NCBI GenBank assembly: GCA_964508365.1 | Contig: CAZDTP010000022.1 | Location: 1 to 46,237, forward strand | Source: an uncultured archaeon | GTDB taxonomy: Archaea; Asgardarchaeota; Lokiarchaeia; Sigyniarchaeales; SOKP01 | Length of the DNA: 46,237 nucleotides | Reading direction: 5' to 3' | Shown: positions 16,823 through 21,654 of the stretch, in pieces | Numbering within the stretch: the stretch's first letter is position 1 | Layout of the letters: every line of letters begins with the position of its first letter | Made by a program: the position numbers and the translations under genes | The notes under the pieces: generated by a model | What the model saw: the letters and a program-made list of their open reading frames with translations, nothing else | What the model was told of the DNA's origin: nothing | The model's database searches: none

Positions 16823-17212
16823 TTATAAATTTAAATTCTGGTTAAAAGTTATTAAGTTATGCTTCAATTCTTCTTTAAATAGATGATAGTAGGTGAATTT
16901 CTGCTTTTTATATCCTTGAATTAACCCCGCAGCAACTAATTTTCTTAAATGGTGAGATATTGTTGATTGTGATTTATTTAATATAGTTTCTAACTCACAA
17001 ACGCACCTATCTTGCTCTTTTAAAGCATTAATAATGATTAATCGCTCTTTTGATGCAATCGCGGATGTGAATCTTTCAATGACATCTAAATTCTCATTCT
17101 CTTCTAATTTCTTACCCAATATTAGTAACTTATCGAAATCAGAGTTTGAATTTGAGCAATTTTTACAGGCACACAACATCTTCTTAATTTCTTGACTTCT
17201 TTTTTGCTTCAT
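16823..17212 (-). CDS. arsR: ArsR/SmtB-family metalloregulator
   Basis: ERLIII, CVCEL As(III)-type CxC site, SQSTISHHLRKL helix, GLI..YY. Extra N-terminal CACKNC. Divergent from acr3. Confidence 0.9.
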   Translation of the reverse strand: MKQKRSQEIKKMLCACKNCSNSNSDFDKLLILGKKLEENENLDVIERFTSAIASKERLIIINALKEQDRCVCELETILNKSQSTISHHLRKLVAAGLIQGYKKQKFTYYHLFKEELKHNLITFNQNLNL

Positions 17213-17382
17213 ATAGTGCCAATTTTTATATATATCTCTTGTATATGTATATAAAATAAATCGATAAATATAAATTTATAGGATTTAAAGCTCCATATCT
17301 TCTCAAATCGATAACCTTAAATTTGAAGTATTATATTTTATCTTAAGCTTCCACCATAAATAATATGAATCTATGAGAAATT

Positions 17383-17556
17383 ATGGATAAATCCTATAAT
17401 CTAAGGGTTGGGGTAATTTTAGATGGAAAGTATGGTGAAAGAGCTTATGAGAATATTAAGAAAAGATTAAATGCATTTTGGATAACTCTCAAACAATTTA
17501 TAACTAAAATAAAAAATGAACAAAAAGTTAGAAAAGAAAATTCAAAACTTAATTGA
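17383..17556 (+). pseudogene. Truncated remnant resembling the N-terminus of a DUF166-family protein
   Basis: 57-codon ORF MDKSYNLRVGVILDGKYGERAYENIKKRLNAFW... The G(K/E)YGERxxENI start is typical of DUF166, but the rest degrades into low-complexity K/N sequence and stops. Confidence 0.45.
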
Positions 17557-17561
17557 TCATT

Positions 17562-18653
17562 ATGGTTGAAGAAGATATTGAAAGTAAAGCAATAGATAAA
17601 TTAAATAAATCAGAAGAAGCAAAACAAGAATCAAGAAAGATTAACTACTTCGAAAAGCTTCTTCCTATATGGGTGGTATTATGTATCATCATAGGTTTAA
17701 TTCTTTCCCAGTTTGTACCAGAGATAAGTCAAGCGATAAATTCTTTACAAATTGGAGGTATTTCTATACCAATTGGGATTTGTTTATTTTTAATGATGTA
17801 CCCCGCAATGTTGAATTTACAAGCATCAGAATTGAAGAAATTAGGTAGAAACCCAAAACCTATAATCTTGACATTAATTTCTAATTGGCTTGTTGCTCCT
17901 TTTGTGGGCTTGGCGATGGTTAATATATTTCTACCAGGCACAACTGAATCTATAATACAATTGAAAGTTGCGATAATATTACTCTCAAGTTCGCCTTGTA
18001 CGGCTATGGTTTTAGTGTGGGGATGGATGGCGAAGGGGAACCAAGAACAAAATGTGTTAAATACGAGCTTAAATACGATAACAATAATCTTTTTGTACGT
18101 AGGAATGGTTTCCTTATTAACAGGTATTCAAAATATTCCAATTAATCCATGGTTATTATTAATCTCTTTAGTATTCTTCATTGGTATACCATTATTATTA
18201 GGAATAGTAAGCAAGAGATTAATCATCTCATCAAAAGGAATATCGTGGTTTAATGAAAGCTACAAACCATTTGTTGGAAAGATTTCAATTGTTGCTTTAT
18301 TGACAACTTTAGTTGTTTTATTTTCTCTAAATGGCGAAGTTCTTCTAGATAATCCTGATTTGTTACTACTAGTCTCAATTCCTCTTTTAGTAGGTTTTGT
18401 TATTGTAGTTGCTTACAACGTTTTTATTACTAAAATCTTCAAAATGAAGTATAAAGAGGCAGTTATTACCGTAATTATCGGATCATCAAGTCACTTTGAA
18501 ATTGCCATTGCAACAGCTATCGCTATATATGGAGTTGGTTCCATAGCAGCTTTAGGAACTACAATGGGTTTATTTTGGGAAGTACCTGTTATGCTAGCAA
18601 TAGTATATCTTGGAAAATTCCTTGAGAAACGAGGTTTCTGGAAAATTAATTAA
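17562..18653 (+). CDS. acr3: Acr3-family arsenite/antimonite efflux transporter
   Basis: MMYPAM, NWLVAPF, the conserved PCTAMV Cys motif and SSHFEIAIATAI; ~10 TM. Likely ATG at 17562. Confidence 0.92.
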   Translation: MVEEDIESKAIDKLNKSEEAKQESRKINYFEKLLPIWVVLCIIIGLILSQFVPEISQAINSLQIGGISIPIGICLFLMMYPAMLNLQASELKKLGRNPKPIILTLISNWLVAPFVGLAMVNIFLPGTTESIIQLKVAIILLSSSPCTAMVLVWGWMAKGNQEQNVLNTSLNTITIIFLYVGMVSLLTGIQNIPINPWLLLISLVFFIGIPLLLGIVSKRLIISSKGISWFNESYKPFVGKISIVALLTTLVVLFSLNGEVLLDNPDLLLLVSIPLLVGFVIVVAYNVFITKIFKMKYKEAVITVIIGSSSHFEIAIATAIAIYGVGSIAALGTTMGLFWEVPVMLAIVYLGKFLEKRGFWKIN

Positions 18654-18696
18654 TCATAATAAAAAGATATTAAAAAATGAAAGAGGTTTAATATTA

Positions 18697-20364
18697 ATGG
18701 CAGTAGTATATATGCGTAAACTAGAGCAAGAACCTGATAGTTATGATTCTAAATTCACAGCACTTACAAAGGGAGTAAATTTAGAAGTTAGAGAATGGAT
18801 ACTTGATAAGGTTGGTACGTCTAAATCCATCCTAGAAGTTGGATGCGGAACTGGTAGTCTCGCCTCTCAAATGGCGTTAAACGGAAATAATGTTACCGCA
18901 ATTGATATAAATTTTCAAATGATCAACTACGCCATGCAGAACTATCCTTCTGATTTAAAAGAAGGTTCGCTTTTATATCAAAAGGGATCTTTTTCCTACA
19001 TGCCAGTAGAGGTTAATTCCCAAGATTTGGTAGTTAGTACCTTTATGTTATCTGAACTTCGGCCTTTTGAACAACAAATCTTTCTTAGAAATGCCTGGAG
19101 AGTTTTAAAACCACATGGTAGCTTATTAATCGCAGCAGAATTTGTTCCAAATGGTTTTTGGAAACTGATATTTAAAATAAAAAGATGGAGATATAAAAAA
19201 AAACTGAGGCGTCTTAAATTGCGGAGTACTTTTCTATTAAAATGGTTCTTCAACTATATTGAACCAATTGGATTCAAAATCAATGCAAAAGAAGCCTGGA
19301 AACATGGAACAATTCAAGCTCTCGAACTGATAAAGGATGGCGATAAAGGAATCAATGAGCCAGGATATTATCAACCTAACCCAAAACGATTCAAAGGGAT
19401 AATATCACAGCTAAGAATATATCGCTGCATTTACACAGGTCAAATTGATCTCGTTCCAATAGATCCTGGTATTTACAAATCTGGTAATCCTACTGAATCC
19501 TCTCCTATAATAGTGACAGCTAACTATGAATTCACTTACATTAAAGTAATGAGAGATTTAAAGGGTATTGATGCATGGGTATTATGTGTTGATTCTAACG
19601 GGATTAATGTGTGGTGTGCTGCGAGAGGAAATGATTTTGGAAATAATCAACTAATCGAGGCTGTTGAAGCTACTGGTATTGAAAGGTTAACAGACAAAAA
19701 AACATTAATTCTCCCACAATTATCTGCAGGAGGAGTTGCTACTCCAGAATTGCAGAAAAAATCTAAAAATTTTCCCTTTAGGGTTGTTTATGGGCCTGTT
19801 TGGTCTAAAGATTTACTCGAGTTTCTTGAAAAACGCCCCGCTCGAAAACCCGATAGAATGAAACTTGCTAAATTCACCCTAAAACATCGATTTCGTGGTT
19901 TTATCACGCACACAACATTTCTATTAAGAAAGATTTTCATGCTACCTCTTATAAGTTTATTCGTTGTATTCCTTATACTTAATGCTCTCAATATATCCGC
20001 TAAATTGTGGTGGGTTGGTGAATTATTACTTTGGATAATTACATCAAATTTCATTATAATTTTTGCATTTCCGATAGCAAATTTCACTCGTCGGTTTATT
20101 ATTAAGGGAATCTTCTTTGGAACTTTGAATGTTTTTATTTTGGGAATAATCTCCTATTTATTTCATAATTCGATAATTTTTACACTTTGGAACTTAAGTT
20201 TTTTCTTTTGGGTTTCATTTTTTTCAACAATGTCTTTAAGTGGATATACGATGGCCACTAGTCCTAGCGAAATACAAGAGGAGTACCCCCTTTTTAGTAT
20301 TTTAAATAAAGTTTTATTAACAATAAGTATAATTTCATTATTAATTGGAATCATTTTTCTCTAA
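18697..20364 (+). CDS. Fusion of a class I SAM-dependent methyltransferase (CpaM-like) and an HgcA-like corrinoid-binding domain with C-terminal TM helices
   Basis: ATG 18697 follows a GAGGT RBS. MTase motifs LEVGCGTG, AIDIN and LKPHG. Then PGIYKSGNP..SPIIVTANY..WVLCVDSNGINVWCAARG (cap helix, 19606-19629) and ILPQLSAGGV, with 4-5 TM helices at the end. Confidence 0.85.
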   Translation: MAVVYMRKLEQEPDSYDSKFTALTKGVNLEVREWILDKVGTSKSILEVGCGTGSLASQMALNGNNVTAIDINFQMINYAMQNYPSDLKEGSLLYQKGSFSYMPVEVNSQDLVVSTFMLSELRPFEQQIFLRNAWRVLKPHGSLLIAAEFVPNGFWKLIFKIKRWRYKKKLRRLKLRSTFLLKWFFNYIEPIGFKINAKEAWKHGTIQALELIKDGDKGINEPGYYQPNPKRFKGIISQLRIYRCIYTGQIDLVPIDPGIYKSGNPTESSPIIVTANYEFTYIKVMRDLKGIDAWVLCVDSNGINVWCAARGNDFGNNQLIEAVEATGIERLTDKKTLILPQLSAGGVATPELQKKSKNFPFRVVYGPVWSKDLLEFLEKRPARKPDRMKLAKFTLKHRFRGFITHTTFLLRKIFMLPLISLFVVFLILNALNISAKLWWVGELLLWIITSNFIIIFAFPIANFTRRFIIKGIFFGTLNVFILGIISYLFHNSIIFTLWNLSFFFWVSFFSTMSLSGYTMATSPSEIQEEYPLFSILNKVLLTISIISLLIGIIFL

Positions 20365-20419
20365 AAATAAAAATAATGCAAAAAAATAAAAAGAAATTGA
20401 TATTTAGGAGGTATGTAAA

Positions 20420-20782
20420 ATGACTGAAGCAAAATTTAAAGCGAGTTTAGATAAGTTATCTATAAAGGATTTTAAAATCTTTATAAAGGAAGATATTTGC
20501 AACGGATGCGGTTTATGTGCAGAATTGTGTCCCTTTGGGCTTCCACAACAAATGGATTCTGGGAAATACGAAATTAATAATCCTAAGCTATGTACTGAAT
20601 GCAGTGCTTGTAAGAGGAATTGTCCCGTAAATGCCATCATTATGATGGAAAAGAAGGGGTGCGGTTGTTTATGGAATGCAAGAGCAAAAGCAAAAAATTC
20701 CAATTCAGGAAATAAAGACATTAATAGTTGCGCCTGTGATCCAGAAAATGAAAGTGAAACAAAATCAAATTGTTGTGGTTAA
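20420..20782 (+). CDS. HgcB-like 2x[4Fe-4S] ferredoxin with a Cys-rich C-terminal tail
   Basis: CNGCGLCAELCP and CTECSACKRNCP, followed by GCGC, CAC and a terminal CCG. Directly after the hgcA-like gene, with a GGAGGT RBS. Confidence 0.85.
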   Translation: MTEAKFKASLDKLSIKDFKIFIKEDICNGCGLCAELCPFGLPQQMDSGKYEINNPKLCTECSACKRNCPVNAIIMMEKKGCGCLWNARAKAKNSNSGNKDINSCACDPENESETKSNCCG

Positions 20783-20834
20783 AATGGTATCAAAAATTAC
20801 TCTAATTTAGAATTAAAGAACATTAATTTAAAAG

Positions 20835-21272
20835 GTGATAAAAATGGAAAAAGAAGGATTAAAAATATCGGTTAGTGAAAATAAAAATTGTCAAATAAAA
20901 TTAGAAAATTCATGCTGTGGTTCATCAAATTCTTGTTGTGAGGACTTAACTTCAAAAGAATCGTCTAGCACTCACGAAATTAATTTGAAAGAGACAGTAA
21001 ATATCGATTCGAATAAATTATCAGTAGATGTATATGTTCCTCTGAATGCTTGCGAATGCGTTTGGTCTCAATTTATGAACCTTGTATTTTCGGCACTTAG
21101 CCCTTACATGAAACACATAAGGTTTGAAACAAAAGACTTAGATTCTGAGGAAGCTCGCAAGCTTAACTTAACGGGAAATTGCGTTGTTATTGACGGTACA
21201 AAGAAATATATAACTTCATTCGCATTAAAGAAAGATTTACCTATACTTCTAAAAGAAAAAGGATTATTATAA
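20835..21272 (+). CDS. Cys-rich protein with a thioredoxin-like C-terminal domain (possible metallochaperone)
   Basis: N-terminal SCCG..SCCE, then VDVYVPLNACEC..IRFETKDL..VVIDG, a thioredoxin/ArsD-like topology. Same strand as the preceding genes; GGTGA RBS. Confidence 0.6.
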   Translation: MIKMEKEGLKISVSENKNCQIKLENSCCGSSNSCCEDLTSKESSSTHEINLKETVNIDSNKLSVDVYVPLNACECVWSQFMNLVFSALSPYMKHIRFETKDLDSEEARKLNLTGNCVVIDGTKKYITSFALKKDLPILLKEKGLL

Positions 21273-21315
21273 ACTTAAGTTGTTTTATTCTTTTTTCTAT
21301 AAAAGGTGATACTAT

Positions 21316-21654
21316 ATTAAAAAAATTAAATTAACAATTTTTGGACCTGAAAAAGAGCTATCAAACGGAATTGAGTATGAAGTTTCTATAGAAGAGGAAG
21401 GAACGATAATTGAAGCATTGGCGACTCTAGATAGACAACTTCTTAACAATCCTAAGCTTTCACCGTTTCCTTTATATAAAGGTCTGATTAAAAGCTATCT
21501 CCAATTAATCTGGGATCCACAAAAGAATGCGATTTATGAAGACTGTGCAAGCAATGCCTATGGACCAAATAAAGCGTTTATGCCTCTTCTGGACGATGTA
21601 AGCTTCAATCTGTATCCGAACAGCGACATAACTCTTATAGTCCACGCTGATTGA
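21316..21654 (+). CDS. Beta-grasp (MoaD/ThiS-like) protein lacking the C-terminal GG; non-canonical ATT start
   Basis: The frame is open from 21310. GGTGAT at 21305-21310 precedes ATT at 21316. KIKLTIFGPEKEL..YEVSIEEEGTIIEAL..LQLIWD..FNLYPNSDITL follows the MoaD pattern. Ends HAD-TGA-TGA. Confidence 0.6.
   Translation: MKKIKLTIFGPEKELSNGIEYEVSIEEEGTIIEALATLDRQLLNNPKLSPFPLYKGLIKSYLQLIWDPQKNAIYEDCASNAYGPNKAFMPLLDDVSFNLYPNSDITLIVHAD

Follow-up and report, generated by a model that had tools for sequence, protein, structure and literature searches.

A methyltransferase::HgcA-like fusion within a conserved ArsR-flanked acr3 operon of Asgard archaea: a candidate corrinoid-dependent metal(loid) methylation module

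We analysed a stretch of 46,237 nucleotides (nt), hereafter called the window, corresponding to positions 1 to 46,237 of contig CAZDTP010000022.1 (assembly GCA_964508365.1) from an uncultured archaeon of the Lokiarchaeia (Asgardarchaeota; Sigyniarchaeales; SOKP01). The window carries an arsenic locus in which a divergent arsR gene and the arsenite permease gene acr3 accompany a gene encoding a class I S-adenosylmethionine (SAM) methyltransferase domain fused to an HgcA-like corrinoid protein, followed by an HgcB-like ferredoxin gene and two further genes, ORF5 and ORF6. Genome-wide searches were performed on the genome to which the window belongs (G000; 4.07 Mb, 149 contigs), where the locus lies on contig C22 and whose nearest protein matches bear the names Lokiarchaeota or Promethearchaeota, and loci fetched from related genomes are designated by L-codes. 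The features of the locus are listed below, with protein lengths in amino acids (aa) and the basis of each assignment in brackets.

16823-17212, minus strand: arsR, ArsR/SmtB-family repressor, 129 aa (HTH_5, NF033788)
17303-17326, no strand: operator-like palindrome (exact TCAAAT-N12-ATTTGA match)
17383-17556, plus strand: DUF166 gene remnant, 57 aa (both ends match intact DUF166 genes)
17553-18653, plus strand: acr3, ACR3-family arsenite efflux permease (TIGR00832; start codon uncertain)
18697-20364, plus strand: fusion protein, 555 aa, whole gene (homolog start alignment, NCBIfam and Pfam matches)
18697-19341, plus strand: CpaM-like class I SAM methyltransferase domain, N-terminus of the fusion (NF043040)
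19444-20364, plus strand: HgcA-like part of the fusion, corrinoid-binding and C-terminal membrane domains (CdhD, NF043039, NF040863)
19606-19629, plus strand: cap-helix motif NVWCAARG (alignment; the presumed cobalt-ligating Cys is residue 307 of the 555-aa protein)
20420-20782, plus strand: HgcB-like 2x[4Fe-4S] ferredoxin, 120 aa (NF040864, motifs)
20835-21272, plus strand: ORF5, Cys-rich thioredoxin-fold protein, 145 aa (predicted structure, fold matches)
21316-21654, plus strand: ORF6, beta-grasp protein, probably 112 aa (predicted structure, N-terminus of relatives)

A first-pass annotation, made from the sequence alone, had described six genes here, with an arsR gene bearing a CVC site divergent from a same-strand run with short gaps. 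All six were recovered at the positions listed by open reading frame (ORF), Pfam and NCBIfam checks, and the plus-strand run facing the minus-strand arsR comprises acr3, the CpaM-like methyltransferase::HgcA-like fusion, the HgcB-like ferredoxin, ORF5 and ORF6. The intergenic gaps measure 43 nt (acr3/fusion), 55 nt (fusion/hgcB), 52 nt (hgcB/ORF5) and, if ORF6 starts at ATT 21316, 43 nt (ORF5/ORF6). The inventory itself needed two amendments, since the DUF166 remnant between arsR and acr3 had been overlooked and ORF6 probably extends over 112 rather than 78 aa. The same gene order was found in 23 related genomes, whose HgcA parts share 54-96% identity with that of the window fusion. As the order recurs in so many genomes with fusions this divergent, the arrangement is not due to chance.

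The fusion gene was assigned a start at ATG 18697, which is preceded by an AGAGGT ribosome-binding site, and not at an upstream TTG, because all homologs begin with MAVVYMRKLE. Its methyltransferase domain spans about 215-250 aa and matched the CpaM model NF043040 with 139.7 bits over residues 32-238 (ORF numbering), below the cut-off of 180, the next-best family scoring 52.8 bits. CpaM is a stand-alone protein of ~216 aa encoded next to an HgcAB-like gene, whereas the window domain falls below the cut-off of the family and is fused. Across 13 homologs there was no variation in the SAM motif GCGTG or at the acidic residues D70 and D110.

The HgcA-like part (ORF residues 282-579) scored 179.5 bits against the HgcAB_like model NF043039 (cut-off 285) and 173.9 bits against the HgcA model NF040863 (cut-off 275), and was also matched by Pfam CdhD. 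The cap helix GINVWCAARG is invariant in the alignment of the fusion family; all 22 of the canonical HgcA proteins sampled read NVWCAAGKG, so that the window fusion keeps the Cys but has RG in place of GK and departs from the HgcA signature N(V/I)WCA(A/G)GK. Like canonical HgcA, with its C-terminal membrane domain of about five helices, the protein combines a corrinoid domain carrying a Cys-bearing cap helix with a C-terminal multi-helix membrane domain, here seen as 4-5 hydrophobic segments across residues 406-555. The alignment to canonical HgcA extends through this membrane region, with ~33% identity over the corrinoid and membrane domains.

The protein was then placed among 86 HgcA-like domains by a quick maximum-likelihood analysis with Shimodaira-Hasegawa-like approximate likelihood ratio (SH-aLRT) supports and a CdhE outgroup, in which the root is set by one long branch. 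Canonical HgcA formed one clade (99% support), and the Loki-type fusions, including that of the window, a separate one (100%), sister to the Thor-type fusions (93%). The window protein lies outside canonical HgcA in this tree. With scores below the curated cut-offs and a cap helix devoid of GK, the identification as HgcA proper has to be dropped, and the fusion constitutes a clade of its own, set apart from canonical HgcA also by its fused N-terminal SAM methyltransferase domain. Nor is it an HgcAB-like fusion protein of the NF043039 type: its score lies under the cut-off, its ferredoxin is encoded by a separate gene and the NF043039-type A-B fusions are placed elsewhere in the tree, as are the triple fusions described below, with deep relations moderately supported.

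Asgard metagenome-assembled genomes (MAGs) commonly encode full-length fusions (548-565 aa), which are annotated merely as 'methyltransferase domain-containing protein'. A profile of the fusion family (E <=1e-30) matched 121 of 300 sampled Asgard genomes, including 58/68 in the family of the window's genome and 24/27 in its genus, though some of these matches are not complete fusions but shorter HgcA-like paralogs. Three further Asgard families contain more distant fusions of full length, and the top list of a search among 1.84 billion representative proteins (50% identity clusters) contained ~25-30 full-length fusion clusters. Bacterial methyltransferase::HgcA-like fusions were found in Anaerolineae, Desulfobacteraceae and Poribacteria. 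The ~540-aa fusions of Anaerolineae and other Chloroflexota (L038-L053) match the window protein over the methyltransferase and corrinoid-binding domains only and differ in their C-termini; tblastn found no HgcB-like gene in most of these loci. Triple fusions joining methyltransferase, HgcA-like and HgcB-like modules in one protein of 590-630 aa are present in the Asgard family f14 (L154, L156, L157) and in Desulfobacteraceae (L043, L054), and group in the tree with the A-B fused paralogs.

The genome of the window also contains a second system of classical type, at G000:C9:76588-78385 (L017:8589-10386), consisting of a stand-alone CpaM (250.4 bits) followed by an HgcAB-like fusion (377.8 bits), both over their cut-offs. 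Its neighbours are an ISH3-family transposase-like gene (96 bits, cut-off 225) and a CPA2 cation antiporter gene, with no ars genes, and its proteins are 28-29% identical to those of the window (29% between the window methyltransferase domain and the stand-alone CpaM). In total, four CdhD-family members were detected in the genome, with CdhD/E-like proteins on contigs C16 and C24.

The ferredoxin encoded downstream of the fusion possesses two CX2CX2CX3CP motifs, together with GCGC and, at its C-terminus, CC. It scored 46.7 bits against the HgcB model NF040864 (cut-off 99), and nonetheless agrees with HgcB in motifs and gene position. The eight cluster cysteines and GCGC do not vary among relatives, nearly all of which also carry a Cys pair at the C-terminus, either CC or CxC. 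When the protein was aligned with canonical HgcB, its GCGC coincided with the GVGC motif containing Cys73 and its terminal CC with Cys94/95, the three non-cluster cysteines of HgcB reported to be needed for mercury methylation (PMC11588087). The window thus resembles the canonical system in having a separate downstream 2x[4Fe-4S] ferredoxin with extra internal Cys and a terminal CC, and differs from it in reading GCGC where canonical HgcB reads GVGC.

ORF5 had no Pfam or NCBIfam match, and its description as a Cys-rich thioredoxin-like protein was borne out by the predicted structure: residues 60-145 were modelled with a predicted local distance difference test (pLDDT) value >90 as a thioredoxin-like domain (VIA Z 10.3, root-mean-square deviation 2.1 Å over 78 residues, Foldseek E ~1e-3). 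The CxC following strand 1 is invariant, and the disordered CC-rich N-terminal tail is variable. We also considered ORF5 as a candidate ArsD; neither the protein nor the genome yielded a PF06953 match, and the fold searches returned generic thioredoxin folds, with ArsD outside the top 50. A protein-atlas search gave a weak lead to small proteins of the Thioredoxin_3 type (score 0.86). The predicted complex between the HgcB-like ferredoxin and the thioredoxin domain of ORF5 scored 0.02, which is evidence neither way.

The frame of ORF6 is open from 21310, and the residues upstream of the annotated start match the N-termini of relatives of 104-123 aa. A putative ATT start at 21316 lies 5 nt after a GGTGAT ribosome-binding site, suggesting that ORF6 is probably a 112-aa protein translated from a non-canonical ATT. 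ORF callers restricted to ATG, GTG and TTG cut it to 78 aa (TTG 21418). The earlier beta-grasp assignment agrees with the structural model, which is of moderate confidence (mean pLDDT 70) and among the fold matches comes closest to SAMP1 (E 1.5e-3, TM 0.55-0.68).

The arsR product was matched by Pfam HTH_5 (1.1e-17) and by NF033788 with 70.1 bits, above the cut-off of 55. It contains an N-terminal LCACKNC cluster and an RCVCE motif in helix 3, which represents a CXC metal site, and both motifs (RCVCE and N-terminal LCxCxxC) are kept in ~30 orthologs. Thor-type regulators show an N-terminal Cys and ACVCE, and the regulators adjoining bacterial canonical hgcA show RCICGE and C-terminal cysteines. 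The arsR/acr3 spacer contains the palindrome TCAAAT-N12-ATTTGA, found as one exact match in the window where 0.01 would be expected, which overlaps the second of two AAATCGATAA repeats (17258-17267, 17306-17315). The same palindrome, exact or with one change, occupies the same position beside arsR in 11 relatives, including the loci L141 and L143, which have no acr3 and carry it 63-122 nt upstream of the fusion gene. On these grounds ArsR would bind at the palindrome and control the adjoining genes in response to an inducing metal. A scan for sigma-70 promoters and intrinsic terminators, which is unsuited to archaea and uninformative here, gave counts no greater than the shuffle expectation.

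The acr3 gene at 17553-18653 is the sole acr3 match in the genome; its product scored 266.8 bits against TIGR00832 (cut-off 282.8) over positions 2-325 of 327 and carries a PCTAMV motif with a conserved Cys, which we take to be a feature relevant to ACR3 proteins. The 57-aa ORF upstream of acr3 is an in-frame internal deletion lacking ~184 codons compared with the 241-aa gene of the closest relative. An intact, Cys-rich DUF166 gene (PF02593, 96 bits; 241-250 aa) stands between arsR and acr3 in L098 and L099, the closest relatives, as well as in L110-L116, L133 and others, and in L136 it precedes the fusion in a MarR/arsM locus. DUF166 therefore seems to belong to the module and yet to be dispensable in the window's genome.

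The first-pass annotation had noted that the locus contains no ArsM gene, and none reached the cut-off in the entire genome, where the best match to the ArsM model NF008823 scored 74.6 bits against a cut-off of 263; the methyltransferase domain of the fusion scored 32-33 bits with the same model. Genome-wide searches returned no pI258-type ArsC at cut-off and no ArsD (PF06953).

Conservation of the genomic context was surveyed in 48 loci from genomes of the window's family. The ferredoxin gene follows the fusion in 47 of them, acr3 lies directly upstream of the fusion in 23, and a divergent arsR is present in 32, namely the 23 with acr3 and nine in which arsR faces the fusion gene directly. 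The acr3/arsR linkage that the first-pass annotation had proposed to survey across Asgard genomes is thus upheld in this family. ORF5 was detected in ~26 relatives, and ORF5 and ORF6 are nearly confined to loci of the ars type. In the tree of fusion proteins, the MarR-linked loci form a single clade (98%) and ars-linked loci occur in every other subclade, while the Thor-type fusions, taken as outgroup, have arsR immediately upstream on the same strand. As all subclades but the MarR one, together with the outgroup, are ars-linked, this distribution indicates that the ars-linked state is old and maintained, with one lineage having switched to MarR.

In the loci of the MarR type (L117, L119, L122-L132), the fusion and ferredoxin genes lie behind a MarR regulator, and the conserved neighbours encode a 194-aa uncharacterised protein, a protein with gelsolin repeats, a cupin, an MFS transporter, a GNAT acetyltransferase with a weak ArsN1-like match (32 bits) and a flavin mononucleotide (FMN) reductase. 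In a Promethearchaeum sp. MAG (L030:5921-7681), three extra plus-strand genes separate acr3 from the fusion and include those for a ResA-like thiol-disulfide oxidoreductase and a DsbD/ArsG-like membrane protein.

True ArsM (335-369 bits) was identified in 34 of 101 genomes of the window's family. A strict complementarity between the fusion and ArsM was considered and rejected, given that at least 17 fusion-bearing genomes have ArsM, as do at least 6 of 10 fusion-lacking ones. Two relatives encode both proteins within one operon. In L110 the order is arsR, divergent from DUF166, acr3, arsM, fusion, hgcB, ORF5 and ORF6, with arsM (L110:6079-6960, 347 bits) ending 38 nt before the fusion; in L136 it is MarR, arsM, DUF166, fusion and hgcB (arsM at L136:9524-10324, 363 bits). 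The presence of arsM inside the same operon ties the module to arsenic chemistry beyond co-regulation, and argues against simple redundancy of the fusion with ArsM. The 'ArsM-independent route' put forward in the first-pass annotation cannot be taken to mean that the fusion replaces ArsM, as both are found in at least 17 of the 58 fusion-bearing relatives.

The module shares traits with several known systems and is identical to none of them. As for canonical hgcAB, a frequent association with ArsR-family regulators and ars genes is observed (PMC7438021; 10.1101/2022.10.17.512643), whereas the window adds two conserved genes, for the CxC thioredoxin-fold and beta-grasp proteins, and sits within an acr3 operon. 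The CpaM and HgcAB-like pair (NF043040/NF043039) of Pyrococcus furiosus, Kosmotoga and others comprises the same three modules in a different arrangement, with a free methyltransferase and HgcA fused to the ferredoxin; in the window the methyltransferase is fused to HgcA and the ferredoxin is free. The two types belong to different tree clades, and the pair in the window's own genome is, as described above, a distant one at 28-29% identity and without ars neighbours. ArsM/AS3MT likewise combines an ars-operon setting with the class I SAM methyltransferase fold, whereas the window fusion lacks the ArsM-type Cys triad domain, scores only ~32 bits with the ArsM model and would reach its substrate via a corrinoid, needing ferredoxin-driven reduction. 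CdhD and CdhE of acetyl-CoA synthase share the Pfam CdhD corrinoid-binding domain; unlike the window protein, they have no cap-helix Cys motif, membrane domain or SAM methyltransferase, and their methyl donor is methyl-tetrahydropterin.

Taken together, we propose, with a probability of about 0.5, that an ArsR-controlled operon couples arsenite export by Acr3 to a self-charging corrinoid methylation of As(III), Sb(III) or another soft metal(loid). Judging from the context, As(III) or Sb(III) would be the most likely substrates, because CVC-type ArsR and Acr3 handle these species. By analogy with HgcAB (PMC11588087), the CpaM-like domain would bind SAM and methylate the Co(I) of a corrinoid held under the Cys-bearing cap helix. 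SAM, and not methyl-tetrahydrofolate, was shown by experiment to be the methyl donor of canonical HgcAB (PMC11588087), so a fused SAM-binding domain fits this first half-reaction, and the SAM-to-cobalt step is the part that we infer from the canonical system. The methyl group would next pass from the Cys-on methyl-corrinoid to a soft metal(loid) held by thiolates, which could be those of the ferredoxin GCGC and terminal CC, with the CxC thioredoxin-fold protein as a possible supplier. The cobalt would then be re-reduced to Co(I) through the two [4Fe-4S] clusters of the ferredoxin.

Several observations weigh against this proposal. The N-terminal cysteines and CVC of ArsR also resemble Cd/Pb-sensing sites of the CadC type, which leaves the identity of the inducer uncertain. 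Methylarsenite exceeds arsenite in toxicity, and an exporter of the ArsP/ArsK type was not seen in the locus. About a quarter of the loci surveyed (12-13) are linked to MarR with generic efflux and detoxification neighbours, and the distant Asgard fusion clades of families f24 and f14 have no ars genes nearby. The true ArsM carried by at least 17 of the 58 fusion-bearing relatives weakens the need for a second arsenic methylase. Finally, hgcAB of Pseudodesulfovibrio mercurii ND132 is induced by arsenic via ArsR, yet no mono- or dimethylarsenicals were detected (10.1101/2022.10.17.512643), so that ArsR linkage alone does not imply arsenic methylation.

More tentatively, the fusion and its HgcB could represent a second, ArsM-independent route of As/Sb methylation through a Cys-ligated corrinoid, with metal(loid) methylation aided by a SAM-binding partner as the ancestral job of the HgcA family and the mercury HgcA as a derived branch that lost this partner. 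The occurrence of methyltransferase-fused forms on several deep branches of the tree, including bacterial ones adjoining canonical HgcA, is consistent with this scenario, which we regard as possible and on balance doubtful.

An alternative is that the system acts on a non-metal(loid) substrate, such as a thiol, another small molecule or a protein, and helps the cell under arsenite or thiol stress, or has some other corrinoid-dependent role. This would suit the CpaM/HgcAB-like superfamily, which is without an assigned function and whose NCBIfam CpaM model is a hypothetical equivalog only, as well as the lack of ars neighbours around the C9 pair (CpaM and A-B fusion) and the MFS, GNAT, cupin and FMN-reductase genes of the MarR-linked loci, which are typical of organic-toxin responses. 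Strain ND132, in addition, made putative thioarsenicals and not methylarsenicals (10.1101/2022.10.17.512643). The extra conserved cysteines of the module (GCGC, terminal CC, CxC and the CC-rich tails) are however typical ligands of soft metals, and a specific linkage to arsR, acr3 and arsM is seen repeatedly over deep divergence. We regard this explanation as unlikely.

We consider it rather less likely still that the operon encodes an HgcAB variant that brings its own SAM-binding domain and works as a mercury methylase, and whose ars linkage merely reflects shared ArsR-type regulation as in Pseudodesulfovibrio mercurii, where ArsR-regulated hgcAB is documented (10.1101/2022.10.17.512643). The HgcA-like part retains corrinoid and membrane domains at ~33% identity to canonical HgcA, the operon products have the cap-helix Cys as well as counterparts of HgcB Cys73/94/95, and the tree joins the clade to canonical HgcA and not to the A-B fused paralogs, at a moderate support of 83-90. 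These features have to be set against the score of 173.9 bits where HgcA requires 275, the separate clade, the replacement by RG of a GK found in 22/22 canonical proteins, and the position inside an acr3 operon, with arsM in two relatives, which goes beyond co-regulation. Moreover, as reported in PMC10083202 with reference to Podar 2015, the sole non-canonical paralog tested, the fused HgcAB of P. furiosus, gave no Hg methylation.

The reverse reaction, an anaerobic demethylation in which Co(I) strips the methyl group from methylarsenicals of competitors and Acr3 exports the resulting As(III), would make sense of the co-location with acr3, draws on the strength of Co(I) corrinoids as methyl acceptors and would fill a gap in that we know of no oxygen-independent methylarsenite demethylase, but it is very improbable given the intact SAM motif of the fused class I methyltransferase domain, the energetically implausible regeneration of Co(I) by methylating S-adenosylhomocysteine and an operon that encodes no methyl acceptor enzyme.

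With respect to previous work, the coupling of HgcAB-type genes to arsenic, on which the first-pass annotation was built, stands as a linkage within the window's family and is not new in itself. The linkage of canonical hgcAB to acr3, arsC, arsM and arsR has been published (PMC7438021, Fig. 6), and so has its control by ArsR (10.1101/2022.10.17.512643). Likewise, CpaM and the HgcAB-like fusion protein have already been catalogued as families by the NCBIfam curators. In the analysis of Lin 2023 (PMC10083202), Asgard sequences fell with the fused-HgcAB clade; the first 327 columns of the alignment had been trimmed beforehand, a step that may have removed the N-terminal methyltransferase domain. 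In the open-access and preprint literature we found no description of the methyltransferase::HgcA fusion or of its place within acr3 operons.

The methyltransferase::HgcA operon is genuine and conserved, and lends itself to experiment. What the HgcAB family does natively has been in question since its discovery. Mercury methylation brings no obvious benefit to the cell, and the clade described here offers a concrete test of this question: a self-contained module of SAM domain, corrinoid protein and ferredoxin, located in an operon that can be recognised as an arsenic operon, and kept in many Asgard genomes. If the module methylates As or Sb, a corrinoid-dependent arsenic methylation would take place in anoxic sediments and would have been missed by surveys based on arsM. 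If Hg is what it methylates, the Asgard archaea would have to be counted among the methylators, and the hgcA marker models, which exclude the fusion, would need revision. Whichever the substrate, the fusion supports, independently and from genomic data, the role of SAM as methyl donor to HgcA-type proteins.

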